64,000 nucleotides of DNA, from positions 497,644 through 561,643 of the forward strand of contig CAXXWS020000002.1 of assembly GCA_963665325.3 (NCBI GenBank), in the 5' to 3' direction. Positions 1 to 37,848 of the stretch are shown one piece after another; position 1 is the first letter of the stretch, and each line of letters opens with the position of its first letter. The notes under the pieces were generated by a model, which did not search any database, had not been told where the DNA came from, and saw only the letters and a program-made list of their open reading frames with translations. Origin of the DNA: Alphaproteobacteria bacterium. Its GTDB lineage: Bacteria > Pseudomonadota > Alphaproteobacteria > Bin95. Made by a program: the position numbers and the translations under genes.

Positions 1-1
1 C

Positions 2-478
2 GAGAATCCTGGTGACGCGTTGGTGGATCTGGCTCCACGGGTATTGGCCAGGAGGCAGGAGAGACCAGTTTGCGTTGCGGATCGTGGGCGACGGTTCCGC
101 GCCGGCAGGCGGGAAAAGGCTGGGGGGTTGAGGCCTGTCCTTGGACTGTTCGCCGCCAGGGGCCTGGGTGGCCATGCCGAAATATTCGAGCCAGGAAGGG
201 TCGAGAGTTTCCCTGGCGGTCGGCATCGTCTCGAGGACGAGGGAAACAAGGCGCCGGCCCTGGTCCCTGCAGTCGGGTGACGGGCAGATAGCAACCAGTC
301 CCCAAGGATAGCGGCCGTCGGCAGCGGCTTTCCCGTCATGGGCCTCGATCCTGAACCAGCCGGGCTCGGCGTAGCATGTACGCCCGCAGAGCGAGCAGGA
401 CATGTGGCCGGAAACGGTCTGCTTTCCGAGAAGGGACTCGATTTCGTGCAGGCCGCGGGGGCATTCCAGTTTACGCAT
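2..478 (-). CDS. hypothetical Cys-rich protein, partial (3' end runs off the window start)
   Basis: Own translation of the minus strand: ATG at 476-478, then 159 codons open to position 2 with no stop (MRKLECPRGLHEIESLLGKQTVSGHMSCSLCGRTCYAEPGW...). GC3 about 75%. Absent from the ORF track because there is no stop inside the window. No family recognised. Confidence 0.35.
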   Translation of the reverse strand, partial: MRKLECPRGLHEIESLLGKQTVSGHMSCSLCGRTCYAEPGWFRIEAHDGKAAADGRYPWGLVAICPSPDCRDQGRRLVSLVLETMPTARETLDPSWLEYFGMATQAPGGEQSKDRPQPPSLFPPAGAEPSPTIRNANWSLLPPGQYPWSQIHQRVTRIL

Positions 479-562
479 GGAGTCGACCCGTCAGAGTGTC
501 ATTCGCCACTCATGCGGAATCGACCCAAATGCGGGCAAGGCGCCCGTCGAACTTCCTTTGCA

Positions 563-2116
563 TCACCTTCCCCGAACCTTGATCGTGCAATCCACGTACC
601 CGCTTTCGTCTTGTTCCGCCCGCTGGAAACACCCCCTTATGGCCGAACCGTAGTGCTCCCAGATATGGTCCTTCCAGCCCAGGGTGGGGTCCGCCCGGGG
701 CAGGAACGGCAAGCGGCTCTGGACCGCCGCGCCGCCGGCGAAGAAAACCAGCGCCAGCGCCGCCGCCGCCAGTGCCGTCCTTGCCACACGCCGGCGTCCC
801 CGCCTGCGATCCACGGCGATGACGGCCGTCGAGCCCGACAGCATTTCCATCTGCGGGCCCATCTTCGCGCTCCATGCCTCGATCCTGTCCACGACGCCGC
901 GAATGCCGTCCAGGTTCTCGGCCAGGTTGGCGACCGACTCCTCGCTGAGCCTGTTTCCCGCCCCGATTTCCTTCTCGGCTTCGGCGTCACTTTGCCTCCT
1001 GGCGTCCAATGTCGACTCGCCCGATCCCTCGGAACCGTCCTCCTCGTCTGCAGGGCTTTCCCGGTTCGCCTGCGGCCCCGTCTCCGGTTCGTCCCGGGCG
1101 GCCTCGGCGCGCTCTTCCCCGGCAGGGCTCACTTTACGGCTTCCCGACATCATCTCCTTGCCTAGCTTGACGGCCTTGCCTGCCACTCCCTTCGCGATAT
1201 CGAGCCCCTTCTTTGCCTTTCCAGGTCGTGGGGCTGCCGTTTCCGCTTCGCCCGCCCCTCCTTCGCCTTCGCCTCGACCCGGCGCCCCGCGCTCGTCGTC
1301 ATCGACATCGGCATCCGGATATCCGCTTGCAGCGTGCGCCCCGCCAGGCGCGTCGCGGCCTCTTTCCGTTCCGGTCCCGCTTTCAGCTTCCACGCGAGGC
1401 ATCCCGGACCGGTCGGCGCCCCCGGCCGTCTCTGCAACCTCTCCGTAGCGGTCGGTCGCTCCAGACCCGGTCACCTTGGCGATCGCCCCGGCCAGAGCCG
1501 CATCCGTCTGGCCGTCGTCGGCTTGCCCTTCGGGGACAGCTTCCGGCTCCCGGCTCGTGTCCGGGCCTTGCCCTACACTTTCGATTTCCAAGCCATCATC
1601 CGGGTCCCGGTATTCTCCCTCGCCTTCCGACAGAATCAGGCCGGTCTCCGTGTCGTATCTGTCGCCGGAGGGAGTCACCGACACAGCGCGCGTTCCGGCC
1701 CCGTCGCCGGCGCCCGGCGCCTCTTCCATGGCCGCGTCATTCGGCGGAGGTTCCGCTGCCCGTTCCGGCTCGGTGCTGTCCTGCGGGGCCGGGTTGTCGG
1801 CGTCCTCAGCCGGCGACGTTTCGACAGCGGTCTCCACACCCCCATCGCCGACCGCTTCGCTCAGGATTTTCCGCGCTGCCGTCCTCGCCTCTTCGAGGTT
1901 CATGTCTGCGTAGCGGGCGATCCGGATCCGGCGGCTCCGGACTTTCCCATCCTCCTGCCTCGTCCTGGCACTGACGATCCACGATTTTGTTCCCGAAGGC
2001 AGGATACGTAATCCGAAACCGGCCAAACCCTCGTCCCAGGCGACCCACTCCCTTTCCTTGGGCTTCAATGCATCGACGCTCGCCTGATCGAACTCAAACC
2101 TCCCTGACATCATCAC
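563..2116 (-). CDS. membrane-anchored protein with an integrase Arm-type (DUF4102-like) N-terminal DNA-binding domain, a long acidic low-complexity linker and a C-terminal TM segment; no recombinase catalytic domain
   Basis: The N-terminus FEFDQASVDALKPKEREWVAWDEGLAGFGLRILPSGTKSWIVSAR...IARYADMNLEEARTAARK matches the P4-type integrase Arm domain pattern. About 330 aa rich in D/E/G/A/P follow. Then comes the TM segment VARTALAAAALALVFFAGGAAV and a 50-aa tail with 2 Cys. A strong SD (GGGAGGTG) abuts the GTG-ATG-ATG start cluster at 2108-2116. Confidence 0.75.
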   Translation of the reverse strand: MMMSGRFEFDQASVDALKPKEREWVAWDEGLAGFGLRILPSGTKSWIVSARTRQEDGKVRSRRIRIARYADMNLEEARTAARKILSEAVGDGGVETAVETSPAEDADNPAPQDSTEPERAAEPPPNDAAMEEAPGAGDGAGTRAVSVTPSGDRYDTETGLILSEGEGEYRDPDDGLEIESVGQGPDTSREPEAVPEGQADDGQTDAALAGAIAKVTGSGATDRYGEVAETAGGADRSGMPRVEAESGTGTERGRDAPGGAHAASGYPDADVDDDERGAPGRGEGEGGAGEAETAAPRPGKAKKGLDIAKGVAGKAVKLGKEMMSGSRKVSPAGEERAEAARDEPETGPQANRESPADEEDGSEGSGESTLDARRQSDAEAEKEIGAGNRLSEESVANLAENLDGIRGVVDRIEAWSAKMGPQMEMLSGSTAVIAVDRRRGRRRVARTALAAAALALVFFAGGAAVQSRLPFLPRADPTLGWKDHIWEHYGSAIRGCFQRAEQDESGYVDCTIKVRGR

Positions 2117-2154
2117 CTCCCGCTACAGCCTTTCGTCGCACAGTTCCGGCTCAC

Positions 2155-2780
2155 GCTGGCGCGCCATGGAGCGGCCGTGGATTCCTGGAGCGCGCCCGTG
2201 GCGCTGGACCGCGCGCCATGGAGCGGCCGTGGATTCCTGGAGCGCGCCCGTGGCGCTGGACCGCGCGCCATGGAGCGGCCGTGGATTCCGTGGCGCGCGC
2301 CCGTGGGGCTGGCCCGCGCGCCATGGAGCGGCCGTGGATTCCTGGAGCGCGCCCGTGGGGCTGGCCGCGCGCCATGGAGCGGCCGTGGATTCCGTGGCGC
2401 GCGCCCGTGGGGCTGGCCCGCGCGCCATGGAGCGGCCGTGGATTCCTGGAGCGCGCCCGTGGCGCTGGACCGCGCGCCATGGAGCGGCCGTGGATTCCTG
2501 GAGCGCGCCCGTGGGGCTGGACCGCGCGCCATGGAGCGGCCGTGGATTCCTGGAGCGCGCCCGTGGGGCTGGCCGCGCGCCATGGAGCGGCCGTGGATTC
2601 CGTGGCGCGCGCCCGTGGGGCTGACCGCGCGCCATGGAGCGGCCGTGGATTCCGTGGCGCGCGCCCGTGGGGCTGACCGCGCGCCATGGAGCGGCCGTGG
2701 ATTCCGTGGCGCGCGCCCGTGGGGCTGGCCGTGCGCCATGGAGCGGCCGTGGATTCCTGGGGCGCAGCCGGCTCCACTGC
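2155..2780. repeat. tandem array of 12 copies of a ~52-bp unit (period 51-53 bp) with internally phased CC(A/G)TGG hexamers
   Basis: CCATGG cores at 2164, 2216, 2268, 2321, 2372, 2425, 2477, 2529, 2580, 2632, 2684 and 2736. There are two unit subtypes (..ATTCCTGGAGCGCGCCCGTGG.. and ..ATTCCGTGGCGCGCGCCCGTGG..). Units are directly adjacent with no unique spacers. Confidence 0.95.
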
Positions 2781-2802
2781 TTCGTCGGTTTTCCGCCGAG
2801 CC

Positions 2803-4845
2803 TCACTCTGCCGCTGCCGGCATGGACGCCGCCGGGCCGAGGCGCTTGCGTATCTTCCCGATTTCCTGCGCAAGGTCCCGGTCGAACCGGTCCAGTTCCG
2901 ACATGGCCTCCCGCCGGCGCAGCAGTCCGGCTGCTTTGAGCTTCCGCTCCACATAGGGATTGGGATCGGCATCGCCTCGCAGCGCGGCATGCTCCCAGTA
3001 GCGGGTGATGGCGAGCCGCATGGCGTCCCTCGGGAGCTCCTTGGAGGCGGCGATCACATACTGCTCGTCCGGTTTCATCATCACCAGGTCCTCGGGGCGC
3101 ACGATGCGCTCCTTGACGAGGTTGCGGCTGTCGCCGGTGGTGACCTTGTTGGCGGCGAGCAGGACCGAGCGGCCCATGGGCGTGCCGGAGGAGGTCTGGG
3201 TGTAGCCCTCGAAGGTGGCGTGGCCGATGGCCTTGGAGACTTCCTCCGCGCCGGCGGCGTCCGCGCGCGACCAGCCGAGGATCTGGACGACTTCGGAGAG
3301 GTCGATCATCTCCTGGCGGCGCTGCTTGCCCCAGCTGCCGTCGATCCCGGAGAGCGCCTGGGCGAAGGCCCAGAAATGGACGCCGCGCCCGGCGCCCGTC
3401 CTCCAGGCGTCCATGACGGGTTCGAGGTAGCCGACGGCCGGCATCTCGTCCATGACGACCAGCATGTCCTTCTTCAGAGACCGGCGGGCGGCGACGGCGA
3501 ACGGGATCGCGATCCAGAGCCTGAGCCAGGGGCGCGCCGCCTTGAGGACCTCCTCCGGCACCACGACGAAGATGTCCATGTTGCCTTCGGCCAGGTCGTG
3601 CGGATCGAATGTGCTGGCCGCCGTCTGCGCCTGGATCTTCGGATGCGCCAGGAACTGCATCTGGTTGGCGATCGTGGTGTAGTTCGAACCGCTCTCCTGC
3701 TTGCCGATGGCCTGCTCGGACTCCATGGCGCGGTGCGCGAGCCCGCCGGCGAACATGTCGCCCTCGAGGATCTGCGCCATCAGTGCGCTGCGCCTGTCGG
3801 GACCGGCCGAGAGGTTGTCGAACACGTGGGCCAGGTTCCGCTTCTCCTTCTCCGCCCCATAGGCCGCCCAGGCGATATGGCCGGAGATCAGGCGCTTGGC
3901 GCTCTCGTGGAAATGGCGGCTGTTGCCGCCGTCGTTCGCGGGCGGCGTGAGCAGGCCCTGGACGAGCACATCGACATCCTGGACGGCCTTCTCCTCGCCG
4001 CGCAGGAAATCGAGCGGGTTGTAGGTGTGCTTCTTCGCGAAGCGCGGCAGGTGGCAATGGGGATGCTGTTCGCGGTGGCGGTCGATAACGCCATAGGGGT
4101 CGAGCAGGATGACCTCGCGGCCGAGCTCGCGCCGGCGGCGGGCGACGATCGGATAGAGCTCGCCGCGCGGGTCGATGGTGACGGTCGAGCCCTGCCAGCC
4201 GCGCCCGTGGGGGGCCAGCATGTTGGCGGCGATGAGCGCGCCCTTGCCGGTGCGGGGCGGGGCGATGGTGACGGCATGGCCCTCGAGCGGCCAGACGGCG
4301 AGCGGGGCGCGGCTGCCGGGCCCGGTCTGGCCGAGCAGGATGCCGTCCTGGCGCCGCGCGAGCTTCCGGAGATGGCGCGCGCCCATGAGCTTCGAGGCGC
4401 CGTGGAGCTCGGACTTCGACCGCCTGCGCCTGGCGATCCGCCCGGCGCCGGTGAGCGCGGTCAGCAGCGCTACCAGCCAGAGGAACCCGAGCAGGGGCGC
4501 GATGAGCAGCGGCGCCGCCAGCCGGAACGCGTCGATCGCCGCGCTGCCCTTGGCCAGCGCCAGGACCCCGCCGAACTCGCCGGCGAGCAGGAACGGCGCC
4601 GTGTCGATCGCGATCGACATGGCGGCGATGGCGGCCGTCGGTCCCCAGACGCCGATCTTCCAGCCGAGGCCGCCGCGCTTGAGCTCGGTGAACAGCAGCA
4701 CGGCGAGCGAGGCCGCGGCCATGCCGGCAAGCGCCCAGCCCCGCAGCTCCGGATCGGGCCGTTCGGTCCAGAGCCACCAGACGAGGCCGGCGCCCGGAAT
4801 GCCGGTCGCCAGCGCCAGGCCCAGATGGGTTGCAAATCCGCCCAT
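2803..4845 (-). CDS. type IV secretion coupling protein (VirD4/TraG/DotL family)
   Basis: Multi-TM N-terminus, Walker A APPRTGKGA, and TraG/VirD4-like blocks TIDPRGELY, LLDPYG, YNPLDFL, VVMDEMPAVG. The track ORF starts at 4875, but the ATG at 4845 has a GGAAGGAA SD 6 nt upstream and is preferred. Confidence 0.85.
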   Translation of the reverse strand: MGGFATHLGLALATGIPGAGLVWWLWTERPDPELRGWALAGMAAASLAVLLFTELKRGGLGWKIGVWGPTAAIAAMSIAIDTAPFLLAGEFGGVLALAKGSAAIDAFRLAAPLLIAPLLGFLWLVALLTALTGAGRIARRRRSKSELHGASKLMGARHLRKLARRQDGILLGQTGPGSRAPLAVWPLEGHAVTIAPPRTGKGALIAANMLAPHGRGWQGSTVTIDPRGELYPIVARRRRELGREVILLDPYGVIDRHREQHPHCHLPRFAKKHTYNPLDFLRGEEKAVQDVDVLVQGLLTPPANDGGNSRHFHESAKRLISGHIAWAAYGAEKEKRNLAHVFDNLSAGPDRRSALMAQILEGDMFAGGLAHRAMESEQAIGKQESGSNYTTIANQMQFLAHPKIQAQTAASTFDPHDLAEGNMDIFVVVPEEVLKAARPWLRLWIAIPFAVAARRSLKKDMLVVMDEMPAVGYLEPVMDAWRTGAGRGVHFWAFAQALSGIDGSWGKQRRQEMIDLSEVVQILGWSRADAAGAEEVSKAIGHATFEGYTQTSSGTPMGRSVLLAANKVTTGDSRNLVKERIVRPEDLVMMKPDEQYVIAASKELPRDAMRLAITRYWEHAALRGDADPNPYVERKLKAAGLLRRREAMSELDRFDRDLAQEIGKIRKRLGPAASMPAAAE

Positions 4846-4991
4846 GGCGTTCCTTCCTTCGGAGCTTGTCTGCATTTCCGGTCATGCGGTTGTTCCGGGG
4901 GCCGACCCCGACCCGACCCGTCAATCCGGGGCGGCCGAAGCCGCCCCGATCTCCTTTATTTTCTTCATCGTGCTGCTCCAGTCGGCGATCT

Positions 4992-7313
4992 TCACAGCCC
5001 GTCATCCACGGGCGATTGCGGGCCCGGCCCCCCGCGGCCGGTCGGCAGCCGCCCGCCGCCGCGCCCTCTTTGACCGACCCGCATCGGTCCGACGCGCCCG
5101 AACGCGCCCGCGATGCCGCCGCCGAGGCGGTCGGCCTCGCCGTCCCTGCCGTCGCGCCCGCCGATCCAGTCCATGGCGATCGAGGGCAGGTGGTCGATCA
5201 GCTTGAAACAGCCGTTCATCAGCCCGTAGACGGTCATCAGGTAGATCGCCAACATGGCGAGCCAGCCGAGCACGCCGATCCCGTCCGAGGCGCCGGCGTC
5301 GAACACGAGGCCCCGGAACACGTCGTTGAAGGTGTCCATGATCGTGACGAACAGCAGGTAGCCAGTGACGAGGCCGAACAGCATCAGCACCGGGCGCAGG
5401 ATCAGCCCGGGCAGGAAGAGCCAGCCCTGGCGGGTCGCCTGCGTGACGAACCCCTCGCCGCGCACGGTGTGGCCGGCGAGCCAGACCGGCATGGCGAACA
5501 CGGCCGCGATGACGGCGACCAGCCAGGCGAGCAGGCCGAACAGGAACCGCAGGAACGGCAGCACCGGCACGAGATAGGCCAGCACCAGGCCGGCCAGGAT
5601 CATCACGCCCAGTATGGTCGAGATGAAGCTGTCCATGACCTGCCATGCCGCCTCGAACGCATCCAGCCCGCCGCCGATGAGCGGGATGGAGTTCAGCAGG
5701 TTCGATCCCGTCGCAAGGCCGCCGAGCAGCAGAATCGAGCCGAGCGCCTTGGTGACCAGGCTGTGTCCGAGCGAGACCAGGTCCAGGATCGGGTTGCCGC
5801 TGTCGACCAGCTGGATGTCCTCGATGTCGAGCCAGTCGAAGGAGCCGCGCCCGATCCCGCCGATGCCGCCGGAGCCGGGCGCGGGGTCCGCGCCGGCGCC
5901 CAGCACGGCCGGATATTCGAGCGAGCCGGCAAGCTGCTCGGCCGCCGCGGTCACCGCCGCGCTCGCCTGCGGGACGCGCTCGCCGAGCCGTGCGGACGGG
6001 CCCGCAACCCTCGGAATGCTTCCCGCGCCCAACTGGTATTCGCCGACATGGCGGGTTATGGTCATGAACAGCGAGGCCGCGAGCGTCCAGGGGCTGTTCT
6101 TCGCCTCCTCCTGCAGCGCCTCTTCGAGCGCGTTCGTGGCCTCGTCCCGGGTCGAGTCCGCCGCCGCCCTCACGGTCGCCAGATACGTCCCGAGCGGATC
6201 GGCGCCGACCAGCAGCGCCTCGATATCGGGCAGCGGGCCGTCATTGCGCACCGTGCCGGGGGGTGCGGCAAACCATAGGGCCACCCGGTCCGCAATGGCG
6301 CCCAGCGCCGGACGGATGGCGTCGAACGCGGCGCTCTGGGCCTCCGCCATCTTTCCGCCTGGCGTCACGCCGCCGTCGAGGCCCGACAGCCTGACGCTGC
6401 CGCACATGCCCTTCGGCATGCCGCCGGCCTTGCCGTCATAGCTTAGCGTCCGGAAGCCCCGGCCCCTGTAGGCCCTTCTCTGCTGCTGCAGGGGGCTGGA
6501 CCTCTGCGTCTCCGTCACCTCGACATAGGGCGGGTCGCCGACCTCCCGGGCCGCCAGGTTGGCGGTGCGCGCGCAGAGTTCCGCCAGGAAGATCCCCGCA
6601 ATGGCGGCCCGGAGCGGGCGCTGGTGCGGCGCCGGCGCCACCATGGTCCCGTTGCCGAGCACGTCGCGGGAGAACTCGCCCCAGACGATCTGGGCGATAT
6701 CGCCGCCGGTGCGGGCGAGCGAGAGCGCGATATGCTGGCCGCCGGAGAGCCCGCCGGCGAGCGGGACCATGAGCAGGAACGCGGCCACGATCCGGAGCGT
6801 CTCCTTGCCGGTGAACCCCCAGCGGCCCCGGCTTGCGGTATCGACCGTGCCGGCCGCCGTCCACCAGACGAGCAGCACGCCGGCGAGAACCAGGATCGCG
6901 CCGTTGTAGATCGTCAGCATGCCGGAGAGCGCGGTATTGTTGCCGGCATCGAGATCGGAGAGGAACGCCAGCAGGGCGCGTCCCGCTTGATCGGGCTCGC
7001 CCGACAGGTCCGGGACGGGCGGTGTCTGGGCCTCCGCCGGCGAGGACCCTGTCCACATGGCGAGCGCGGCCATGGCGATCCATATCAGCCCGGCGAGCGC
7101 CATGGCGACGCCGAGCCAGCCGAGCGGCCCGCGCGGGCGCGGCAGTCCGCTCTTGCCGCGCCGACGTGGCAGTCCGCCTCCCGCTCCCTGCGGCCGTCGC
7201 AGGCCGCCGGATATCGTGCGCAGCAGGCCGGCGGCGTCCCCGAGCGCCCGCGCGGCCGGGCCGAACAGATCGGGCAGCAGGATATAGCGGGCGAGGGAGG
7301 GACGGCGCGCCAT
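4992..7313 (-). CDS. dotA: large polytopic membrane protein, DotA/TraY-like
   Basis: 773 aa. The C-terminal half has many TM helices and Gly-rich loops (..LIGGGLDAFEAAWQVMDSFISTILGVMILAGLVLAYLVPVLPFLRF..). It occupies the TraY position, after the TraU-V-W-like genes and before the coupling protein, as in IncI R64. Confidence 0.6.
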   Translation of the reverse strand: MARRPSLARYILLPDLFGPAARALGDAAGLLRTISGGLRRPQGAGGGLPRRRGKSGLPRPRGPLGWLGVAMALAGLIWIAMAALAMWTGSSPAEAQTPPVPDLSGEPDQAGRALLAFLSDLDAGNNTALSGMLTIYNGAILVLAGVLLVWWTAAGTVDTASRGRWGFTGKETLRIVAAFLLMVPLAGGLSGGQHIALSLARTGGDIAQIVWGEFSRDVLGNGTMVAPAPHQRPLRAAIAGIFLAELCARTANLAAREVGDPPYVEVTETQRSSPLQQQRRAYRGRGFRTLSYDGKAGGMPKGMCGSVRLSGLDGGVTPGGKMAEAQSAAFDAIRPALGAIADRVALWFAAPPGTVRNDGPLPDIEALLVGADPLGTYLATVRAAADSTRDEATNALEEALQEEAKNSPWTLAASLFMTITRHVGEYQLGAGSIPRVAGPSARLGERVPQASAAVTAAAEQLAGSLEYPAVLGAGADPAPGSGGIGGIGRGSFDWLDIEDIQLVDSGNPILDLVSLGHSLVTKALGSILLLGGLATGSNLLNSIPLIGGGLDAFEAAWQVMDSFISTILGVMILAGLVLAYLVPVLPFLRFLFGLLAWLVAVIAAVFAMPVWLAGHTVRGEGFVTQATRQGWLFLPGLILRPVLMLFGLVTGYLLFVTIMDTFNDVFRGLVFDAGASDGIGVLGWLAMLAIYLMTVYGLMNGCFKLIDHLPSIAMDWIGGRDGRDGEADRLGGGIAGAFGRVGPMRVGQRGRGGGRLPTGRGGPGPQSPVDDGL

Positions 7314-7319
7314 GGCGGA

Positions 7320-8459
7320 TCAGTTCGCCCCCGCCCGTCCGGCGACCCTGCGGTCGCGGTCGATCCGCGCCGCCAGCATCGCGGCCTGGATGGCGAGGCG
7401 GCGCTCCTCCAGGCGGAACCGCTCGCGGTCGAGCAGCAGCGAGGCCGCAAGCAGCGAGGCGGTCTCGCGCAAGAGCGCCTCGCCGCCCATGGACTGGAGC
7501 TCCGTCCACCAGGCCGTGCGCTCGAACCGTTTCGCGGCCAGCAGGTCGACCAGCTCCAGCCGGCTGACAGCCGCTTCCGGATCGCGGTCCGGATCGACCG
7601 CCGCCGCCCAGGCGCCGAGTTCGGGTCCGGGCGCCCTGAGCGCGCGCAGATGGCCGAGCGCCTCGGCCGCCAGCGCGCGCCGGGCGGCGGCCGACCGCGA
7701 GGCCATGACGCGCGCGCGCTCCGAGGCGGAGTCGACGGCGCCGAGCGGCTCGGGGTCCTCGACCGCCGGCACGGTCAGGTTGCGGGAGAGGTCGATCGCC
7801 GCCTGCAGCTCGTTTTCCGAGGCGAAGGTCTCGACGCCGAACAGGCTGTCGGGGCGCAAGTCCGCGCCATGGTCCTCGGACGCGCCCGAGCAGGCCGCGC
7901 TCTGGAGCGGCGCGCGGTCCGGGCTGCACCAGCGCTCCAGGATGCGCCGGTAGCGCTCGGCGCTGTCGGTGGCGGCTGCCGGTGCCGATCCCGTCGCCCG
8001 GTCGCCGGCGATGCGGCCGGTCTCGGAGACGGCGGCCGCGCGGCCCGCGAGTCGGCTCGCGGCGCGCGCCTGGGCGAGGCCCTCCGCGCCGGTGGTCACG
8101 GTGCAGGCCGAGCGCGAGGGCCGGCGCGCGACCTGCGCCTTCACCTCGGCCGCCTCGCGCTCGGTCTGCGCGCGCACCGCGGCATGGCTGTCGATCGCCG
8201 TGGTGATCGCCTTCGCGCTCTGCGCGATGTAGCCCGACTGCTGGCCGGTCTGCCTCACCAGCGCGTCATGGATGGTGCGTTCCAGGATCGCGATGCGGGC
8301 GTTCACCCTGGTGATCACCCGGCTCGCCTCGCTCACCGTCTTCCAGGTCGGCGTGCATTTGCCACCGCCGCCGAAGAACGCCTCCGCTGGCGTGGCGGCG
8401 AGCGCCCAGGCCGCGACAATTGCCGCCCCGGCCGTCAGGAACCGCGCCGTCCTGCTCAT
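7320..8459 (-). CDS. secreted periplasmic T4BSS-associated protein (TraW/IcmX position)
   Basis: Signal peptide MSRTARFLTAGAAIVAAWALAATPAEA. ATGA overlap with the upstream gene at 8456-8459. Assignment is from synteny only. Confidence 0.5.
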   Translation of the reverse strand: MSRTARFLTAGAAIVAAWALAATPAEAFFGGGGKCTPTWKTVSEASRVITRVNARIAILERTIHDALVRQTGQQSGYIAQSAKAITTAIDSHAAVRAQTEREAAEVKAQVARRPSRSACTVTTGAEGLAQARAASRLAGRAAAVSETGRIAGDRATGSAPAAATDSAERYRRILERWCSPDRAPLQSAACSGASEDHGADLRPDSLFGVETFASENELQAAIDLSRNLTVPAVEDPEPLGAVDSASERARVMASRSAAARRALAAEALGHLRALRAPGPELGAWAAAVDPDRDPEAAVSRLELVDLLAAKRFERTAWWTELQSMGGEALLRETASLLAASLLLDRERFRLEERRLAIQAAMLAARIDRDRRVAGRAGAN

Positions 8460-8986
8460 TGCGTCGTTCCCCCGAAGAGGCGGCGGAATCGCTCGCGCTC
8501 GATACCGGCGTCCTCGAGGACATTGCCGCGCACGGTCGTGGTCCGCGTCCCCGGAATGTCATGGACCGGGCCGGCGAACACGCGCGCGTCGAGGCTTCGC
8601 CCGACATGGCGGTTGTAGACGTCGCGGGCCTCCGAGCAGATCCGCTTGCGGGCGAGGTTGAGGATGCGGTCGAGCGCGGCGCCCGGATCGTGGAGGATGT
8701 TGAAGCCGCGATAGTCGAACATGTCCCACACGCAGCTGAGGTCGAGGATCGAGTCCGGCTTGCGAATGCCCTGGTCGGAATGGCGGATGACCTGGAAATC
8801 CGCCTGCACGCCGGCCTCGGCCGCATCCACCAGCGCTTCCGCGACCCGGGGATCGCAGTCGGCCGGCCCGGAAGGGGGAGTGCCCGGCGCGTCCTGCGCA
8901 GCGGCCGGCCCCGCCGATATCAGCAGCAGGGCGAGCAGCGCCGCCGGTCCCCTTCTCGCCGCCATGCCTGCCTTCGCTGTCTTCAT
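8456..8986 (-). CDS. secreted 176-aa protein (TraV position)
   Basis: Trimmed from track ORF 8456..10051 to the ATG at 8986, which overlaps the dotO stop as ATGA. Signal peptide MKTAKAGMAARRGPAALLALLLISAGPAAA. Three Cys. Confidence 0.6.
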   Translation of the reverse strand: MKTAKAGMAARRGPAALLALLLISAGPAAAQDAPGTPPSGPADCDPRVAEALVDAAEAGVQADFQVIRHSDQGIRKPDSILDLSCVWDMFDYRGFNILHDPGAALDRILNLARKRICSEARDVYNRHVGRSLDARVFAGPVHDIPGTRTTTVRGNVLEDAGIERERFRRLFGGTTQ

Positions 8987-11900
8987 GCCGCCGCTCCACG
9001 CCGCTGTTGTCTGCCGGCCAGCCGGTCGGCCATGGCGTCCAGCACCTCGCGCACCGAGGCGCGGGAGCGGGCGCCGCGCGCCTCCAGCTCTGCCAGCACG
9101 TGCTCGATCTGCTGGAGAGCTGATCCGGCCGGGAACGCCTCGGCGAGCACGCGCCGCGCCTCGGCCGGCCCGAGGCGGGACTGGACCCTGCGCCTCAGCG
9201 CCACGTCCACCGGCCTTGTATTGAGCGCCCAGAGCTCCTGCGGCCCGGGCGCATTGACCACCAGCTGCTCCAGCCGCCCGCGTTCGCCGGGGGCGATCAG
9301 CAGCGCCGGCGCGCCGCCCGGGCCGGGTCCCGTCAGCTCGAACTTCACGATGTCGTTCAGCGTGTCCGTCAGGCCGAACGTGGCCGCCATGGCCTCGACC
9401 TCGCGCGCCTGGCCGCCCGCGCCCAGGATCCAGTATTGCGTCGCCAAATCGACCAGGCCGTCGCCGAAGTCCTCCAGCCGCTGGCTGGAGAGCGCGAGCC
9501 GGGCGCCCGCCTTCCTTGCCTCGCGCACGTCGCGCTCCACCTGGGCGCGCACGGCCGGCGCCCCGGCCGTGCGGTGGTATTCGTCGTAGCAGAGCCGCTT
9601 CGGGGTCTCGCGGACCTCCCGGTTGCGCCTGGCGTGCCAGTCGCGGTAGCGCTCCGGCACCCCGGCCAGGTCCTCTTCCGCCAGCCACCAGGTCCGCGTC
9701 AGCGCATGGCGGGCCAGCATGTAGAACGCCGCCGTCTGCCGGTCGGCCTCGGGGCTGCCCGTCGGCGCGACTTCGGCGAGATCGATCACCGCGAGGCGCG
9801 CATTGCCGATATCGAAGGACGTCGCCCGGAACATGTTCGGCCAGGCTGAGGAGAGCCCCGTCAGGATGCGCCGGAACGCGGCCGTCACCGTCTCGCCGCC
9901 GGACCCGTAACGGGCCTCGCGCACCAGGCCCTGCACGGCTTCGGCCTGCGCCGCCGAGGGCAGCTCCGCGAATGTCGGCGCCGCGCGGCGCTGCGCCCGG
10001 ATGGCGGCCTCGACGGCGCCGGCCTCGAAGAGCGCATCGACGACCTCCCATTGCAGCGCCTCTCCGTGCAGGGCGATCCCGTAGAGGTCGAGCGCGGCAT
10101 CCACTTGCGCGTCCTCGCCCCGGTTCCAGAGCTTCGGCTCGCCGTTCCTCGCCGTGTCGGAGGCGAGCTTGTAGGCTTCCTCGACGGTGGCCCCGATCAG
10201 CTCGCGCATGCCGTCGGGCAGGCCGCCGCTGCCGACCGGCGTCACCATCAGCGAGAGCAGGTTCACGAGGAACGCGCGCTCGGCCGGCAGCGGGAAGCGG
10301 CAGCCGAGCTGCGTGTCCATGGGGTTGACGGCATCGGAGGCGTCCATGCGCCAGCGCCAGCGGCCCGCCTCGTGGCGCCGCGAGACCGGCAATGCGTCGC
10401 GCACCATCTCCACGAGCCCGGCCGCCGAGGGCCCGATATCGACGACGGCCTGCAGCGGCAGGCGCGCCTGGCCGCCCTGGAGGCAGAAGGCGAGCCCGAG
10501 CGTGTTCAGCAGCACCGACTTGCCCCGCCCCGGAATGCCGTGGATCAGGTCGAAGCCGTGCTCGGCGCCCTCGAAGCCGAAGGGCAGCGCCTTGCCGTCG
10601 GGCGCCATGAACATGTGCGAGGCGGCCGCCATCCGGTCCGACCGCGCGAGCGGCGCCGGGCGCGACACCGGCAGCATGCGCAGCACCTGGTGAAGAGGCG
10701 CCAGGCCCGCCACCGCAGTCGAGCCGCAGGCGAAGCCCGGCGCCGACATCGCCAGCGCCTGGAGCGGGTCTCCGGTGACGCGCGTCACCGCGATCTCACC
10801 CCAGCCCTCGACGAGCTGCTGCAGACGGCTCGCGCGGCGCGTCAGCTCCTCCCGCCTCGCTTCCGTCGCGATCGGCCCGTCCACCCAAGTCAGGAACTGG
10901 ACCCGGACCCTGACCACGGCGCGCCCGGTGTCGGCATGGGCGGCAAGCGCCCGCGAGGCGTCGCGCACCGCCAGGCTGTCCGAGGAGGAGAACGCCAGGA
11001 ACGGCGCGAGCGCATGGCGCAGCACCGCGCCCGCATGCTTCATGCCGCCGCCTTCGATCAGCACCGAGACGCGGAGCGGCAGGTTGCCGGCGGCCGCCAG
11101 CCGCGCCATCAGCTCGGAGAACGGCCTCACGATGCGGGGTCCGAGCTCCATGTCGAACGGCGCCCAGAGGCGCGGGCCCAGCAGCACCGTGCGGGCGTCG
11201 AGAACCTCCGGGTCCTGGATCAGCACCTGCGGGGCGAGCGGCGGCGGGAAGGCGCCCAGGATCGCGGGCTCCAGCTGGCGCGGCGGGGCCTCGTTGGCCG
11301 AGGTCACCGGAACCCAGCCGTCGCCGACGCTCTCCGGGCCCATCAGCCACCAGCGCAGCACGCGCACCGCGTCATGCGCGCCGAGAACCCGTGCGACCAG
11401 GCCCGTCTCCTCCAGCACGGCCTGCACGGACTCCGTGAACGCCAGATGCCTTGCGCCCAGCGCGCCGTCGGCCGCGAACGGGCATTGCGACTCGTCATCG
11501 CCCGGCGCCCAGTCCTGCATCCGGCGCTCGATCGCCTTCCTCTCGCGCTTCGCCTGGTCGCGCGGCAGCACGGCCGCGCCGCTCCAGCAGGCGATGGTGA
11601 GCCGCTCGCCCGCCGCCCGGGGCGCCAGGCGCTCAACCCTCTCGGCGATCGGGCCCTCGAGATCGAGCCCGAGCCGGGCGCAGCTCTGCCGCTGGCGCCC
11701 GGCCGCGTCCTCGAGCAACCGCCTTCCTTCCTCCGGCGCGCGCTCGAAGACGACATGCAGCGTGTGGCCGCGCTCCAGGAACGCCGTGCCGAGCCGGCGC
11801 TCGACCGTCTCCACCAACCGGTCCAGCTCCGCCTCTCCCATCGCGCTGCGGGCGCCGCCGACATCGATGACCGACGCAAGCGAGCCGTCATGGCCGATCA

Positions 11901-12024
11901 GCAGGCCCGTCCCGTCGCGCTCGGCCGCGGCGCGCACCAGCATGAAGCTCTCCAGCGGCTTGCGCCGCACGTCCCACGACCAGTGAAGCAGGTCCTCCAG
12001 CCCGTCCGCGAGGCCCCGCCGCAT
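8983..12024 (-). CDS. dotO: T4BSS ATPase DotO/IcmB (TraU-like, VirB4 analogue)
   Basis: Trimmed from track ORF 8983..12483 to the ATG at 12022-12024 (MRRGLADGLEDLLHW..), which shares 1 nt with the upstream stop. 1013 aa. Walker A GIPGRGKS. Size and position match TraU/DotO. Confidence 0.85.
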   Translation of the reverse strand: MRRGLADGLEDLLHWSWDVRRKPLESFMLVRAAAERDGTGLLIGHDGSLASVIDVGGARSAMGEAELDRLVETVERRLGTAFLERGHTLHVVFERAPEEGRRLLEDAAGRQRQSCARLGLDLEGPIAERVERLAPRAAGERLTIACWSGAAVLPRDQAKRERKAIERRMQDWAPGDDESQCPFAADGALGARHLAFTESVQAVLEETGLVARVLGAHDAVRVLRWWLMGPESVGDGWVPVTSANEAPPRQLEPAILGAFPPPLAPQVLIQDPEVLDARTVLLGPRLWAPFDMELGPRIVRPFSELMARLAAAGNLPLRVSVLIEGGGMKHAGAVLRHALAPFLAFSSSDSLAVRDASRALAAHADTGRAVVRVRVQFLTWVDGPIATEARREELTRRASRLQQLVEGWGEIAVTRVTGDPLQALAMSAPGFACGSTAVAGLAPLHQVLRMLPVSRPAPLARSDRMAAASHMFMAPDGKALPFGFEGAEHGFDLIHGIPGRGKSVLLNTLGLAFCLQGGQARLPLQAVVDIGPSAAGLVEMVRDALPVSRRHEAGRWRWRMDASDAVNPMDTQLGCRFPLPAERAFLVNLLSLMVTPVGSGGLPDGMRELIGATVEEAYKLASDTARNGEPKLWNRGEDAQVDAALDLYGIALHGEALQWEVVDALFEAGAVEAAIRAQRRAAPTFAELPSAAQAEAVQGLVREARYGSGGETVTAAFRRILTGLSSAWPNMFRATSFDIGNARLAVIDLAEVAPTGSPEADRQTAAFYMLARHALTRTWWLAEEDLAGVPERYRDWHARRNREVRETPKRLCYDEYHRTAGAPAVRAQVERDVREARKAGARLALSSQRLEDFGDGLVDLATQYWILGAGGQAREVEAMAATFGLTDTLNDIVKFELTGPGPGGAPALLIAPGERGRLEQLVVNAPGPQELWALNTRPVDVALRRRVQSRLGPAEARRVLAEAFPAGSALQQIEHVLAELEARGARSRASVREVLDAMADRLAGRQQRRGAAA

Positions 12025-12452
12025 TACTGGAACTTCGGCTTCTGGAGCCCGGGATCGCGGTCGAGGCCGATACCTTCGACGATCGAATCGATCAGCGCCG
12101 GCGCCGAGGCCAGAGCCACCGCGACCAGAATGCCCACCACCGGCAAAGCGAGCCCGCCGCGCTGCTGGTTCTCCAGGTTGGTCTTGAAGCGCAGGATCGC
12201 CCAGCCGCCGACGAATATCGCCAGCCCATAGAACACCCATTCCATCAGGACCATCGCCTCCTCGATCTGGGTGGCTCCGTCCTCCGCCAGCTCGCCCAGC
12301 GTCACCGCCTTCGCCGGACCCGCCCGGAACAGCACCGCGGTGAACGCCGCCGCCGCCAGTCCCGCCATGAACTCCCGGACCTGCCGGGCCATGGCTTCCA
12401 TTCTCTCCTTCATCTCCAACCTCCTTCTTCCGGTTGAAATCCGCCGTCTCAT
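12024..12452 (-). CDS. small inner-membrane T4BSS protein (DotP/DotV/TraR-like), paralog of 12449..12805
   Basis: Two hydrophobic helices. ..GGWAILRFKTNLENQQRGGLALPVVGILVAVALASAPALIDSIVEG aligns with the neighbouring ORF. ATGA overlap at 12449-12452. Confidence 0.6.
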   Translation of the reverse strand: MRRRISTGRRRLEMKERMEAMARQVREFMAGLAAAAFTAVLFRAGPAKAVTLGELAEDGATQIEEAMVLMEWVFYGLAIFVGGWAILRFKTNLENQQRGGLALPVVGILVAVALASAPALIDSIVEGIGLDRDPGLQKPKFQ

Positions 12453-12805
12453 TCGCCGCGCCAGACGGGCGGTTCATGTCCAATGGCCAAACCCTCCAGC
12501 AGCGCCTCGATCAGCGAGGGCGCCGTGGCCAGCGCGACCGCGAAGGCGATCCCCACCACCGGCGTAATCAGGCCGCCGGGCTTCGGGGCATCGAAATGCA
12601 TTTTGAGCCTCAGGAGCGCCCAACCGCCGACGCACACTGCCAGCGCGTAGAATGTCCATGTCACCAGCCACGGCAGCAGGTCCTCGAGCGGATGGCCGGG
12701 GCGGTACAAGAGGTCCTCGCCCATCCCGTAAGGCTTCGCGACCGCCATGCCGGCCGCCAGCGACGCGCCGGCCGCGAAGGCGGAATACGCCGCCCGCCGC
12801 CTCAT
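12449..12805 (-). CDS. small inner-membrane T4BSS protein, paralog of 12024..12452
   Basis: Trimmed from track ORF 12449..13447 to the ATG at 12805 (ATGA overlap). ..GGWALLRLKMHFDAPKPGGLITPVVGIAFAVALATAPSLIEALLEG. Confidence 0.6.
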   Translation of the reverse strand: MRRRAAYSAFAAGASLAAGMAVAKPYGMGEDLLYRPGHPLEDLLPWLVTWTFYALAVCVGGWALLRLKMHFDAPKPGGLITPVVGIAFAVALATAPSLIEALLEGLAIGHEPPVWRGE

Positions 12806-13335
12806 ATCGGCACCGCCTGGACGCCGAGCGTCTCCTGAAGGGCGCGGACCAGGCCCGCCATGTGCCAGGCGAGCACGCCGCCCAAGAGGTGCGAGCCGGC
12901 CTGCGCCAGCGTCGCCTGGCCGCGCCCGTCCACCGCGTGCTTCAGCACGAACAGGCCGCGCATGAACGCGAACACGCCGATCCACGCCACCACGGTGAAC
13001 GCCGCCTGGACCGCGGCGCCGAAGCGCGCCCACTCGCCCGAGGCGGGCGGGATCCACGCCACCGCCGCCGCCGCCTCGCGCTCGGCGCCGAACAGCGACT
13101 CGCCGCCCGCGGCCAGCACCGCCGGCAGCTGGGCCAGCAGCGGCGCCAGCAGGAACAGCATCGCCGTGCCCGTCGCCGTGCCGGGCCAGTGGCCGCCCGC
13201 ATGGCGCAACAGGCGCAGGCACGCCCCCAGGAAGCAGAACGCCGCGAGCGCATAGCAGACCCAGGTCATCAGCGTCCGGAGCGCCGGGTCGACGTTCTCG
13301 ACCAGCGCCCGGAAGGCCTCCTCCAGACCGTTCAT
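12802..13335 (-). CDS. polytopic inner-membrane protein (DotE/IcmC-TraQ position)
   Basis: Trimmed from track ORF 12802..14871 to the ATG at 13335 (ATGA overlap with the dotG stop). 177 aa with about 4 TM helices. Confidence 0.6.
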   Translation of the reverse strand: MNGLEEAFRALVENVDPALRTLMTWVCYALAAFCFLGACLRLLRHAGGHWPGTATGTAMLFLLAPLLAQLPAVLAAGGESLFGAEREAAAAVAWIPPASGEWARFGAAVQAAFTVVAWIGVFAFMRGLFVLKHAVDGRGQATLAQAGSHLLGGVLAWHMAGLVRALQETLGVQAVPI

Positions 13336-14573
13336 TGCGCGGCGCCCACGTTGGGCCGGATGACGGCCCCGCCGGCATCGATCGTGGCGACGGGAGGTTC
13401 GCGTCCGGGCGGTGCGGCGCCTGACGCAGGCTCCGCACTGCCGCCACGCTCCTCCGGCTCGGGCGGCGCGGTCACGACCAGCACCAGCTCGGTGTCGACC
13501 GGGACCCGGACCGTCGGCCCGTCCGGAGCGGACTCCAGCAGCACCCGGCTCGCGACCCGGGCCGCGCTGGCCGCGCCCGCATGGACCTGCTGGCGGTGCG
13601 TGGGGGCCCCGCTCTCCACCGTTATCGAGTTGCCCGAGGCATCGCGCGTCACGATCTGCGCCGTGCGCGCGGCCGCATCGAGGAACCCTTCCGCGAAGGC
13701 CAGCGCCGAGGGCAGCAGCACGCGCTGGAACCAGTGCCGGTCGACCTCCCCCGGAATGCCGTAGCAGGCGCAGCCCGGGTCCACCGCCCAGCCCTCGACC
13801 GCCCAGCTTCGCCGCCCGAGCGAAAGCCGGTCGATCCGGATCACCAGCCGCTCGCCCTGCTCCTGGAACGCCCCGGTCGCGACGGCGCCCGCCAGAGGCG
13901 GCTCCAGCACCTCCAGCACCACCGGGCCCGGCCAGTCGCTGTTCGCTTCGTAGAGCGTGCGCGCATAGAGGCCCCGGCCGACGGCCAGGGCCGCGAGCGC
14001 CGCCGGCAGCCGGGACGCGGCCCGGCCCCGTTCCGGACCGGCCCGGGCGCTCTCCACCGTCTCTTCGCGGGCGTATTCCAGCCAGGCCGCCTTGCCCGGC
14101 GGCTCGCCCAGCACTTCCAGCAGCGCGTCGAGCGGCGAAGACGACGCCTCCCGGTCGCGGCCGCGCTCGGGCAGGCGCTCGCGGTATCCGGCCGCCGGCT
14201 CGGCGCGTTGCCGCTCCACCGGATCGTCCGGGGCCGGCCGGGCCTCCGGAGGAGCCTCCACGATGTCGGGAGGCGGTCCGGCTTCGGCGGCGGGCACGGC
14301 CGGGATCGTCGCCGGGGGCGGTCCCTCCCGCACAGCGGGCCCGGGAGGTGCTGGCCGCGTCGGCTTGTGGAAGGTCGGCGCGAAGCTCTCGCCCTCCTTC
14401 CGGGCCCGGCGCTCGCGCGTCGCGTCGTCCGCCTCGATCGCGTCGCGAAAGGCCGGCGCCACCGGCTTCTGCGGGTCGAACTGGACACCCTCGCCGCCCG
14501 ATTCCGCCCAGGCCCCCGAGAGCGGAAGCAGGAGCGCAGCGAGCGCCAGCGCCGCGAGACGGACAACCGCCAT
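13332..14573 (-). CDS. dotG: DotG/IcmE (TraO-like, VirB10/TrbI-domain) channel protein
   Basis: Signal/anchor segment, Pro-rich linker, and a C-terminal VirB10-like barrel block (..GWAVDPGCACYGIPGEVDRHWFQRVLL..). Confidence 0.75.
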   Translation of the reverse strand: MAVVRLAALALAALLLPLSGAWAESGGEGVQFDPQKPVAPAFRDAIEADDATRERRARKEGESFAPTFHKPTRPAPPGPAVREGPPPATIPAVPAAEAGPPPDIVEAPPEARPAPDDPVERQRAEPAAGYRERLPERGRDREASSSPLDALLEVLGEPPGKAAWLEYAREETVESARAGPERGRAASRLPAALAALAVGRGLYARTLYEANSDWPGPVVLEVLEPPLAGAVATGAFQEQGERLVIRIDRLSLGRRSWAVEGWAVDPGCACYGIPGEVDRHWFQRVLLPSALAFAEGFLDAAARTAQIVTRDASGNSITVESGAPTHRQQVHAGAASAARVASRVLLESAPDGPTVRVPVDTELVLVVTAPPEPEERGGSAEPASGAAPPGREPPVATIDAGGAVIRPNVGAAQ

Positions 14574-14579
14574 CGGCTG

Positions 14580-14885
14580 TCAGCCCTCCCCGCCGCCATT
14601 GACCGCGCGCTTCAACGCCGTCGCGGGGCGGAAGTGGACGACCCGCCGGGCCGGTGCCGTCCCGCGCTCTCCCGTACGGGGGTCGGTGAACGGCCTCTCG
14701 GCCCGCTCCCTCGTCGAGAACGTTCCGAAGTCCCGGAACACCACCCGGTCGCCGGCCGCGATCCGTTCCTGCATCCCCGAAATCACCGCGTCCACCGCAA
14801 TAGCGGCCGCCTTCCGGTTCAGTCCCGTCTCCCTCGCGACCGCGATCGTGAGCTCCTTGCGCGCCCACCATGTCTTCTCTGTCAT
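14580..14885 (-). CDS. HU/IHF-family DNA-binding protein
   Basis: 101 aa. ..KELTIAVARETGLNRKAAAIAVDAVISGMQERIAAGDRVVFRDFGTFSTRERAERPFTDPRTGE..VHFRPATALKRAVN aligns along its length with the HU fold consensus. Confidence 0.85.
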   Translation of the reverse strand: MTEKTWWARKELTIAVARETGLNRKAAAIAVDAVISGMQERIAAGDRVVFRDFGTFSTRERAERPFTDPRTGERGTAPARRVVHFRPATALKRAVNGGGEG

Positions 14886-14886
14886 G

Positions 14887-18240: not shown

Positions 18241-18241
18241 T

Positions 18242-18520
18242 TCAGCCCCGCCCGTAGTCGAGCGCGGTGCGCAGGCGCTTGCGCTGCACCGCGCGCCGCC
18301 CGCCCGCCATCGCGGCGCGGATCGCGCGGACCGCCGCCGGCGGCCGGTAGCCCCGCGCCTCCACCGCCCGGAATGCGAGCCACGCCAGGAATACCGCCGT
18401 CAGCGTCCACCAGCGGGGAAAGAACGCCGCCGGAATCGCGAAGGCCAGCAGGCGCGCGTCGAACGGCCCGAGCCGCACCGGGCGCATCGCGTCCCGCCAT
18501 GACCGGTCCTCCTCGTCCAT
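18242..18520 (-). CDS. icmT: IcmT/TraK-family small membrane protein
   Basis: 92 aa. SWRDAMRPVRLGPFDARLLAFAIPAAFFPRWWTLTAVFLAWLAFRAVEARGY matches the IcmT pattern (WRDS..RFF.D.R..FP...). Confidence 0.75.
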   Translation of the reverse strand: MDEEDRSWRDAMRPVRLGPFDARLLAFAIPAAFFPRWWTLTAVFLAWLAFRAVEARGYRPPAAVRAIRAAMAGGRRAVQRKRLRTALDYGRG

Positions 18521-37800: not shown

Positions 37801-37848
37801 TCCGGCATCCCCCTCGCTGCTTCGTGGAGGTGCCGATGATGCGGTGCC

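Follow-up and report, generated by a model that had tools for sequence, protein, structure and literature searches.

A membrane-anchored protein that carries the Arm-type DNA-binding domain of integrases was identified in a 64,000-nucleotide stretch of an Alphaproteobacteria bacterium genome (contig CAXXWS020000002.1, positions 497,644 to 561,643; hereafter the window), where its gene directly follows that of the coupling protein of a conjugation system. The gene is a 517-amino-acid open reading frame (ORF) on the minus strand at 563..2116, with its stop codon at 563-565, and we label its product Arm-X. It is the last gene of a type IVB secretion system (T4BSS) cluster at one end of an integrated conjugative element (ICE), and the space between it and the gene of the type IV coupling protein (T4CP) is filled by an array of tandem repeats. 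Across related loci the type of array follows the subtype of the Arm domain and not the C-terminal half of the protein. Our favored reading, to which we give somewhat less than an even chance, is that Arm-X would act as an element-specific adaptor tying the DNA of its element to the coupling protein.

To our knowledge, the way in which a T4CP chooses the correct DNA is understood for few plasmid systems, and in each of these the accessory proteins are soluble. The Arm-X family suggests another solution, namely an adaptor that is anchored in the membrane and pairs an exchangeable DNA-recognition head with an array of cognate sites. If true, this would account for the coexistence of several near-identical transfer systems in one genome without cross-mobilization, and for the ability of small elements to parasitize transfer systems. 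It would also be a case of an integrase arm domain working outside recombination, and would offer a first clue to the function of a T4BSS-associated family of about 120 clusters. The six array/Arm specificity pairs described below would constitute a ready-made swap system.

Architecture and relatives of Arm-X

Arm-X is divided into five parts, assigned from the evidence given with each:

1832..2116, minus strand: Arm-type DNA-binding domain, residues 1-95 (PF13356, AlphaFold2, Foldseek)
962..1831, minus strand: acidic region, predicted to be disordered, residues 96-385 (composition and AlphaFold2)
791..961, minus strand: conserved juxtamembrane helix, residues 386-442, NLDGIRGVVDRIEAW...DRRRGRR (invariant alignment columns)
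719..790, minus strand: single transmembrane (TM) helix, residues ~443-466 (hydropathy, AlphaFold2 helix)
566..718, minus strand: predicted periplasmic tail, residues 467-517 (~53 amino acids), DPTLGWKDHxWxHYG..C..(13)..C..VRGR

The identity of the N-terminal domain is given by both sequence and structure. Residues 12-87 match PF13356 (Arm-DNA-bind_3) with an E-value of 9.9e-10 and 38.9 bits against a gathering cutoff of 27, and no other family was matched in a Pfam scan of Arm-X. In an AlphaFold2 model built on 24 homologues, residues 1-90 have a predicted local distance difference test (pLDDT) score of ~90, and a Foldseek search with the Arm model retrieves the arm-type binding domains of the HAI7 and HPI integrases, 3ju0 and 3jtz (root-mean-square deviation 2.1-2.3 Å, target TM-score 0.68-0.85). 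Neither Pfam nor Foldseek returned a winged-helix match to this domain. At the 5′ end of the gene, GGGAGG, a Shine-Dalgarno sequence, precedes a GTG-ATG-ATG run; because homologues begin with MSGKF, translation probably starts from the ATG at 2110 or 2113. The coding-potential score of the gene is positive, at 77.

Arm-X shares its N-terminal 90-residue fold and PF13356 with the P4/CP4-type integrases (3ju0, 3jtz), but these continue into a SAM-like core-binding domain and a catalytic domain (R..HxxR..Y). Arm-X has neither and is not a recombinase. The recombinase family PF00589 gave no match to it at E-values up to 1, and when five real integrases were compared by tblastn with the six frames of the window, only 1778-2113, the Arm part, was matched, all remaining matches having E >0.03. 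The closest integrases are 34-44% identical to Arm-X, over the Arm domain only.

The acidic region has a net charge of -39, a pI of 4.2 and a content of 63% D/E/G/A/P, and pLDDT is below 50 across most of residues 91-371. A few short motifs are conserved within it: VTPSG..YD.ETGEIL, DPDEDLG and a Lys-rich helix at 302-322. Beyond it, homologues share the block NLDGxRGVVDRIEAW...DRRxxRRR, which is followed by the TM helix and then by the tail motif. The hydrophobic segment is the only one in Arm-X (Kyte-Doolittle maximum 2.11), and from the Arg cluster on its N-terminal side, DRRRGRRR, an N-in topology is predicted. Alignment of 50 diverse relatives shows that G480, W481, W486, G490, C496 and C510 are invariant. 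The last 132 residues, hereafter the C-module, were modeled with a deeper alignment to a mean pLDDT of 86.5. This model has a continuous helix at 392-468 that comprises the juxtamembrane and membrane parts, a loop, and a second helix at 481-502 in the tail, with a block-mean pLDDT of 86-96. The T4BSS cluster also encodes a DsbG/DsbC-like protein, a plausible oxidoreductase for the Cys pair of the tail and comparable to TrbB of IncI plasmids.

A preliminary description of this stretch, made from the letters alone, had proposed an Arm-type N-terminus, one TM helix, a Cys-containing tail of ~50 amino acids and a strong Shine-Dalgarno sequence, and had seen no catalytic core nearby. These points are borne out by the results above, the tail having two invariant Cys residues. 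It had further divided the ~420 amino acids after the Arm domain into a low-complexity region, the TM helix and the tail, which holds for the acidic region but not for residues 386-442, where a conserved helix runs into the membrane segment.

Exact look-up of the window Arm-X sequence found it not on record. A word-indexed search identified 27 full-length homologues of ~440-580 amino acids and 38-80% identity, behind which real integrases rank far back. PF13356 is the sole precomputed Pfam domain in 26 of the 27, the exception (P0027) having a miscalled start. When aligned, the homologues are conserved in the Arm domain, semi-conserved with short motifs in the acidic middle, and strongly conserved in the C-terminal block. 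The gene order is equally stable: DotO, a 176-amino-acid ORF, a 379-amino-acid ORF, DotA, T4CP, the array where present, and Arm-X follow one another in every long contig examined, and the Arm-X gene lies directly 3′ of the T4CP gene in the window and in the related loci L001-3, L006-8, L012 and L090-92. A further locus, L089, was considered as another genomic context and rejected, being a deletion-decayed copy of the same ICE.

The C-module reaches well beyond proteins with an Arm domain. A HMMER scan with it recovered 120 clusters at 50% identity (E ≤1e-3), and an Arm domain is present in only 6 of 116 new representatives; the remainder have acidic coiled-coil N-terminal parts of varied length in front of the same TM-plus-tail motif. 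Exactly two Cys residues are found in 59 of 60 C-module tails. None of 10 Arm-less members had a Pfam match, and the C-module itself matched nothing in Pfam or NCBIfam, generic coiled coils only in a sequence-profile search of the PDB, nothing specific in Foldseek, and no protein on PLSDB plasmids with two different queries. The sole source-given name for the family is ‘hypothetical protein’. Full-text literature searches turned up no paper on the C-module family or on any protein that joins an Arm domain to a TM segment, and no curated model or solved structure was found, in agreement with the preliminary remark that such an architecture was not known to have been described for T4BSS elements.

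For all four of the Arm-less relatives whose surroundings were examined, denoted X here, a VirD4-type T4CP gene overlaps the X gene or lies close to it:

L094: 4-nt overlap of the X gene with the T4CP stop codon
L095: likewise a 4-nt overlap, with a DotA encoded upstream that shares 35% identity with DotA of the window
L096: 17-nt overlap with the T4CP stop codon
L093: X gene found three genes past the T4CP gene

The simplest reading of this distribution is that X would be an ancestral T4CP partner in this T4BSS lineage, and the Arm domain a later N-terminal addition.

The repeat array and its co-variation with the Arm domain

Upstream of Arm-X, the window holds the following features in order:

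2159..2765, minus strand: tandem array of 52-bp units, 11.7 copies with 95% matches, between the T4CP stop and the Arm-X start
2803..4875, minus strand: VirD4/TraG-type T4CP (PF02534, E 1.6e-39; also TraG-D_C and TrwB_AAD_bind), with its best start probably at 4845
4992..7313, minus strand: DotA/TraY (TIGR04346, E 4.2e-71), upstream of the T4CP

The last unit of the array stops ~45 nt ahead of the Arm-X start codon. The 22-nt core of the units occurs in 12 perfect copies, all within the array and none elsewhere in the 64 kb, where 0 would be expected, and this is the sole tandem array in the window that scores ≥80. The units hold inverted repeats. The early account of a 12-copy array beside a coupling-protein gene is thus accurate. 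Two other identities for the array were considered and rejected. As an RNA element it has no Rfam match and its folding z-scores (-2.2 and -0.9) are unremarkable. As coding repeats, the periods of 52, 53, 62 and 64 found among loci are not multiples of 3; the ORFs called across the L006 and L008 arrays are artefacts. No sigma-70-like promoter was predicted in 1-3200 and no terminator around the array, by scans that are ill-suited to an alphaproteobacterium of 70% GC.

The preliminary description had suggested a survey of whether homologues co-occur with similar arrays next to T4CP genes, and they do. Of the 14 informative loci that encode a full-length homologue with an Arm domain, 13 (ten T4CP-adjacent and three on partial contigs) have a tandem array in the gap from the T4CP stop to the Arm-X start. 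The arrays belong to six families with mutually unrelated unit sequences:

T1: period 52-53 bp; window, L006, L008, L092
T2: period 64 bp; L001
T3: period 63-64 bp; L002, L017
T4: period 62 bp; L003
T5: period 42 bp with a 21-bp sub-period; L009, L011, L012, L090
T6: period 42-43 bp; L091

Unit counts range from 3 to 17, arrays are 86-96% homogeneous within most loci, and each family’s motif is confined to its own array in the sequence compared, at most 10 kb either side per locus. Each unit contains three to five copies of a short motif, such as YCCAYGG in T1, GGTGCY in T3 and GGTCCC in T5. The unit periods (52, 64, 63.5, 62, 42 and 42.5 bp) each differ from an integer multiple of 10.5 bp by no more than 0.10 turn, corresponding to ~4, 5 and 6 helical turns for 42, 52 and 62-64 bp; the naive probability of six such near-integer periods is 5e-5, a figure to be read with the provision that some types may share ancestry. 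The three Arm-less loci in which the gene is translationally coupled to the T4CP have no array. At L093, the Arm-less locus in which X is three genes away from the T4CP, a perfect 18-bp repeat of 5.3 copies (CGATGCGGCGTTAAGCGA) is found at 4915-5009, ~100 nt past the T4CP stop; it lies in a called 239-amino-acid ORF without a Pfam match, and could be coding or another T4CP-proximal DNA array.

Arm-X diverges much faster than the proteins encoded beside it. Across loci the T4CP is 83-97% identical and DotA 77-94%, whereas Arm-X is only 38-75% identical. Identity between Arm domains is 71-100% for loci that share an array type and does not exceed 77% for loci of different types. The C-module does not follow this pattern: the window and L008 both have T1 arrays and C-modules only 53% identical, L008 and L002 have C-modules 93% identical and arrays of types T1 and T3, and the window and L001 have C-modules 83% identical and arrays of types T1 and T2. 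Array type therefore follows Arm subtype and not the C-terminal half. Because array type tracks Arm identity while the C-module cuts across array types, the array and the Arm domain would appear to move as one cassette.

A second correspondence spans the cassette. The T4CP C-termini were compared for the window (2803-2940) and for L002, L003, L008, L012 and L090. The last ~35 residues of the T4CP come in two unrelated forms, a basic one (...KIRKRLGPAA..AAE) and one ending in ...KRMGLDLDAEEAAAAAS with an acidic LDLDAEEAAAAAS segment. In 11 of 11 loci the tail form agrees with the clade to which the C-terminal half of Arm-X belongs, with the cassette lying between the two, and it does not follow overall T4CP identity.

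Short variants of ~265 amino acids (L004, L005, L013, L014, L016 and P0036) keep the Arm domain, helix, TM segment and tail and have no acidic region. In L004, the variant is encoded in a ~10-kb module (8278-18278) bounded on one side by truncated DctM and TauD genes. Three NikA-like paralogues are followed by a 635-nt region, the short Arm-X, a XerC-like tyrosine recombinase and a 1419-amino-acid TrwC relaxase-helicase; two of the paralogues are recognized by weak Pfam matches, and the third (143 amino acids) is 35% identical to the NikA-like ORF of the window. The 20-kb L004 locus contains no T4CP or type IV secretion system (T4SS) gene. Copies of the short variant share a metagenome-assembled genome (MAG) with the full ICEs of L001 and L002. 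The same element type is seen in L013, L014 and L016; in at least two independent samples it has inserted next to TRAP-transporter (DctM) and TauD genes.

The region upstream of the short variants has no tandem array. GGTCCC/GGGACC is present there in 5-7 copies against ~1 expected, a number reached in 0-6 of 2000 shuffles, and GGTCCC stands at 5-8 times the locus background. GGTCCC is the core of the T5 array, and it is to the T5 Arm domains that those of the short variants are most closely related (63-67% identity). That a mobilizable element without its own T4CP or T4SS keeps the gene argues that Arm-X would serve the transferred DNA and not the apparatus.

The adaptor reading and its alternatives

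In the adaptor reading, the conserved helix, the TM segment and a disulfide-bonded periplasmic tail would be the ancestral part, anchoring Arm-X in the inner membrane beside the VirD4-type T4CP, and the acidic cytoplasmic region would span toward the T4CP or the relaxosome. The Arm domain would be a lineage-specific addition that binds the short motifs reiterated in the upstream array, phased on one face of the helix. Many membrane-tethered copies of Arm-X would then load the DNA of the element and keep it at the transfer machine. Array and Arm domain would diverge and swap together as a cassette, which would give each related ICE or integrated mobilizable element (IME) a private address on a shared T4BSS. 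Array binding, topology, T4CP contact and any effect on transfer are here proposed from sequence comparison.

Binding of the array by the Arm domain and a role at the T4CP are favored because the array occupies the same position in 13 of the 14 informative loci with full-length Arm-bearing proteins, because its type tracks the Arm subtype, because its periods are near whole helical turns, and because the C-module is T4CP-linked even in distant Arm-less relatives. Gene arrangement points the same way, Arm-X directly following the T4CP gene and Arm-less relatives overlapping the T4CP stop. The preliminary description had left the choice between a tether, a relaxosome accessory and a regulator; the comparative evidence narrows this choice without settling it.

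The closest functional analogue is TraM of F-like plasmids, which binds the reiterated sbmA-C sites and links the transferred DNA to the C-terminal tail of TraD, the T4CP. The TraM-site pair is allele-specific and diverges faster than the transfer apparatus. The fast divergence of Arm-X, the co-variation of array and Arm domain and the T4CP tail match would be the parallels in our loci. R388 TrwA, and Agrobacterium VirC2 with overdrive, would be looser analogues, sharing an accessory binder and reiterated sites. TraM, TrwA and VirC2 are however soluble ribbon-helix-helix or tetramerizing proteins without a membrane anchor, whereas Arm-X is a bitopic protein with an Arm fold and a periplasmic Cys tail. 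It does not have the ribbon-helix-helix or other small soluble fold of the TraM/TrwA/NikA class, and the element encodes separate NikA-like ribbon-helix-helix proteins. The sites differ as well, being a long helically phased array by the T4CP gene and not, as for TraM, part of a defined oriT. Streptomyces TraB is another membrane-anchored conjugation protein, and recognizes short clt repeats at or beside the DNA translocase gene, but it is itself the FtsK-like motor and uses a winged-helix domain, whereas Arm-X belongs to a T4BSS and is a binder separate from its VirD4-type motor. An accessory protein that links transferred DNA to a T4CP is therefore a known concept, while this implementation is not known to have been described. 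New here would be the membrane anchor, the integrase Arm domain outside a recombinase, the long phased array, the exchange of cassettes and the stripped-down IME copy.

Several points weigh against the adaptor. Integrase Arm domains recognize reiterated arm-type sites, but classical Arm domains work within recombinases, and we know of no established solo function. Inverted repeats in the array units would suit dimeric binders better than monomeric Arm domains. One locus, L007, has the Arm-X gene without an array, its T4CP stop lying 2 nt from the Arm-X start. Since the array abuts the 5′ end of the Arm-coding sequence, linkage alone could give co-inheritance, and the match between T4CP tail and Arm-X C-terminal half could be explained by a single ancestral replacement. 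A relaxase was not found among the window ORFs scanned, and oriT was not located. The NikA-like gene is 16 kb from the array; nikA adjoins oriT in IncI plasmids, and by this analogy the array is probably not the oriT core.

A more specific version of the adaptor reading would make the array and Arm domain an exchangeable address label by which co-resident ICEs and IMEs load only their own DNA onto a shared T4BSS. The conserved membrane module would contact the T4CP, and the stripped-down adaptor of IMEs would hijack the ICE machine. Substrates for conjugation would thus be selected in cis by a membrane-anchored system in which an integrase arm domain has been given a new task. We put this version forward tentatively, as possible but rather doubtful.

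One possible alternative, which we consider unlikely though worth serious attention, is that Arm-X is a ToxR-like membrane-bound one-component regulator whose Cys tail senses an envelope, redox or mating signal and whose Arm domain binds the array. It would regulate its own gene or read-through of the T4CP operon, for instance as a roadblock. The predicted layout of Arm-X would match that of ToxR, TcpP and CadC: DNA binding at a cytoplasmic N-terminus, then a linker and one TM helix, and on the periplasmic side a small domain that contains a Cys pair. ToxR binds tandem direct repeats, the array immediately precedes the gene and follows the T4CP without a predicted terminator, and the cluster encodes a DsbG-like protein. 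However, the ToxR group uses an OmpR-type winged helix in place of an Arm domain, the Arm-X tail has no homology to ToxR-family sensors, and outside the Arm domain no similarity to them in sequence or fold was found. Its anchor module also belongs, unlike theirs, to a T4CP-linked family mostly without a DNA-binding domain. Because most members lack such a domain and yet keep the tail and the T4CP linkage, the ancestral role would not be transcription control. The ~45 nt between array and gene contain no promoter-like element, up to 12-17 phased units are far beyond the needs of an operator, and the short variants sit in relaxase modules.

A less probable explanation is that the array is an incidental, self-expanding intergenic repeat (a spacer prone to slippage, or else an RNA element), in which case the Arm domain would bind at some other place or not at all. 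L007, with its gene and no array, would fit this explanation, the homogeneity within most loci is consistent with recent expansion, and co-inheritance could follow from linkage alone. What makes it improbable is that six unrelated families occupy exactly the same slot and are found nowhere else within the ≤10 kb compared on either side, that the three coupled Arm-less loci have no array, and that the periods are quantized near helical turns. Further, GGTCCC is retained upstream of the short variants in another genomic context, and the RNA folding and Rfam results are as unremarkable as stated above.

Quite improbable, in our view, is a centromere-like function, in which the array would act as sopC or parC does and Arm-X would hold the excised ICE circle at the membrane so that it is maintained or segregated, a role separate from transfer. 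Twelve helically phased repeats, each with an inverted repeat, resemble sopC of F, which has 12 repeats of 43 bp, and protein and site diverge fast together, like incompatibility determinants. More generally, the sopC/SopB and parC/ParR systems would resemble the Arm-X locus in having ~12 units of ~40-60 bp, internal inverted repeats and an adjacent gene for the cognate binder. Unlike the binders of those systems, Arm-X has no partner NTPase and is membrane-anchored, T4CP-linked and encoded in a transfer operon. No ParA-, ParM- or TubZ-type NTPase was found among the window ORFs scanned, in which the smallest ORFs are only partly covered, and around Arm-X lie the T4CP and DotA genes and a Cys-rich ORF. 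The C-module stays linked to T4CP genes across distant relatives, which points to the transfer machine, and short variants accompany relaxase and NikA-like genes, not replication or partition genes.

Entry exclusion, by which inner-membrane Arm-X would block redundant transfer between cells that hold the same element, is very improbable. ExcA, the comparable protein, follows traY in IncI plasmids, and Arm-X is likewise a membrane protein at the end of a T4SS cluster, near DotA/TraY, that diverges much faster than its neighbors. Specificity, however, should vary in the periplasmic tail or at a contact site, and the tail is the most conserved part of the protein; exclusion has no use for a DNA-binding domain and its matching array; the PLSDB search found no similar plasmid protein, IncI ExcA included; and Arm-X diversity is uncorrelated with DotA identity. 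Finally, the preliminary description had raised the possibility that a P4-type integrase had undergone a frameshift and left Arm-X as its decayed 5′ stub. This can be rejected with near certainty: the sole database-annotated domain of Arm-X is an integrase Arm domain, but at least 27 homologues are full-length, not frameshifted, and have a conserved non-integrase C-terminus, the C-module family extends to ~120 clusters, no catalytic remnant is seen in any frame of the window, and coding potential is positive.

The conjugative element and neighboring genes

An IncI-like type IVB conjugation system occupies the minus strand from ~49.3 kb down to the Arm-X gene. Apart from the T4CP and DotA/TraY genes, the following were assigned, all on the minus strand:

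8983-12024: probable DotO, a candidate by size and position only, with a weak VirB4 match
13332-14573: TrbI/DotG-like protein
14580-14885: HU/IHF-like protein
14887-15915: DotH
15912-17275: two IcmL/DotI paralogues
17272-18240: DsbG/DsbC-like thiol:disulfide interchange protein
18533-19030: NikA-like ribbon-helix-helix protein (PF21983, 28.9 bits against a cutoff of 27)
19027-20214: DotB
20178-20621: SSB
20782-21636: TraI/DotC
22882-23421: DotD
25014-26762: staphylococcal-nuclease (SNase) protein, 582 amino acids
30821-31825 and 31894-33138: two PilV-like shufflon-N proteins
39147-40838: T2SSE thin-pilus gene
47838-49349: secretin-like thin-pilus gene

Past ~49.6 kb the genes are chromosomal housekeeping genes (GlnE, an ammonium transporter, GCS2), and the element is for this reason recognized as an integrated one, with its T4BSS cluster at one end and Arm-X last in the cluster. 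The first chromosomal gene, at 49652-50377 on the plus strand, is a 5′-truncated isocitrate/isopropylmalate dehydrogenase that covers only 123-347 of its Pfam profile. One end of the ICE is probably in or next to this dehydrogenase gene, at 49350-49650 / 49652. The window contains no tRNA gene.

The genes for the NikA-like ribbon-helix-helix protein, SSB and the HU/IHF-family protein all sit within the T4BSS structural cluster. The protein at 25014-26762 joins TbpB-type beta-barrel lobes to its nuclease domain; it may work as a nuclease at the cell surface or in the periplasm, and the nuc genes of IncI and IncN plasmids would be a parallel. Within the thin-pilus/T4BSS cluster lies a four-gene block (34500-38463, minus strand) that encodes a 204-amino-acid ORF, an rve DDE transposase with HTH_32, an AAA_22 ATPase, and an AAA_25 protein with a winged helix-turn-helix, and resembles a TniA/TniB-type transposon. 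The same four-gene set, with equal gene sizes, is found again in L004 (2417-6417) and L005 (16821-20776) from an unrelated MAG, and may be mobile.

Directly downstream of Arm-X, a Cys-rich ORF (MRKLECPRGLHEIESLLGKQTVSGHMSCSLCGRTCYAEPGW...; 1-476, minus strand) runs off the start of the window. Its DNA is 82-93% conserved in L001, L089 and L092, and its product may be zinc-binding. In L006, L008, L091 and L002 the region downstream of Arm-X is variable, with toxin-antitoxin pairs, restriction-modification genes and resolvases, as well as a YAcAr/NADAR protein of 1600-2200 amino acids on the opposite strand, and looks like cargo or a leading region.

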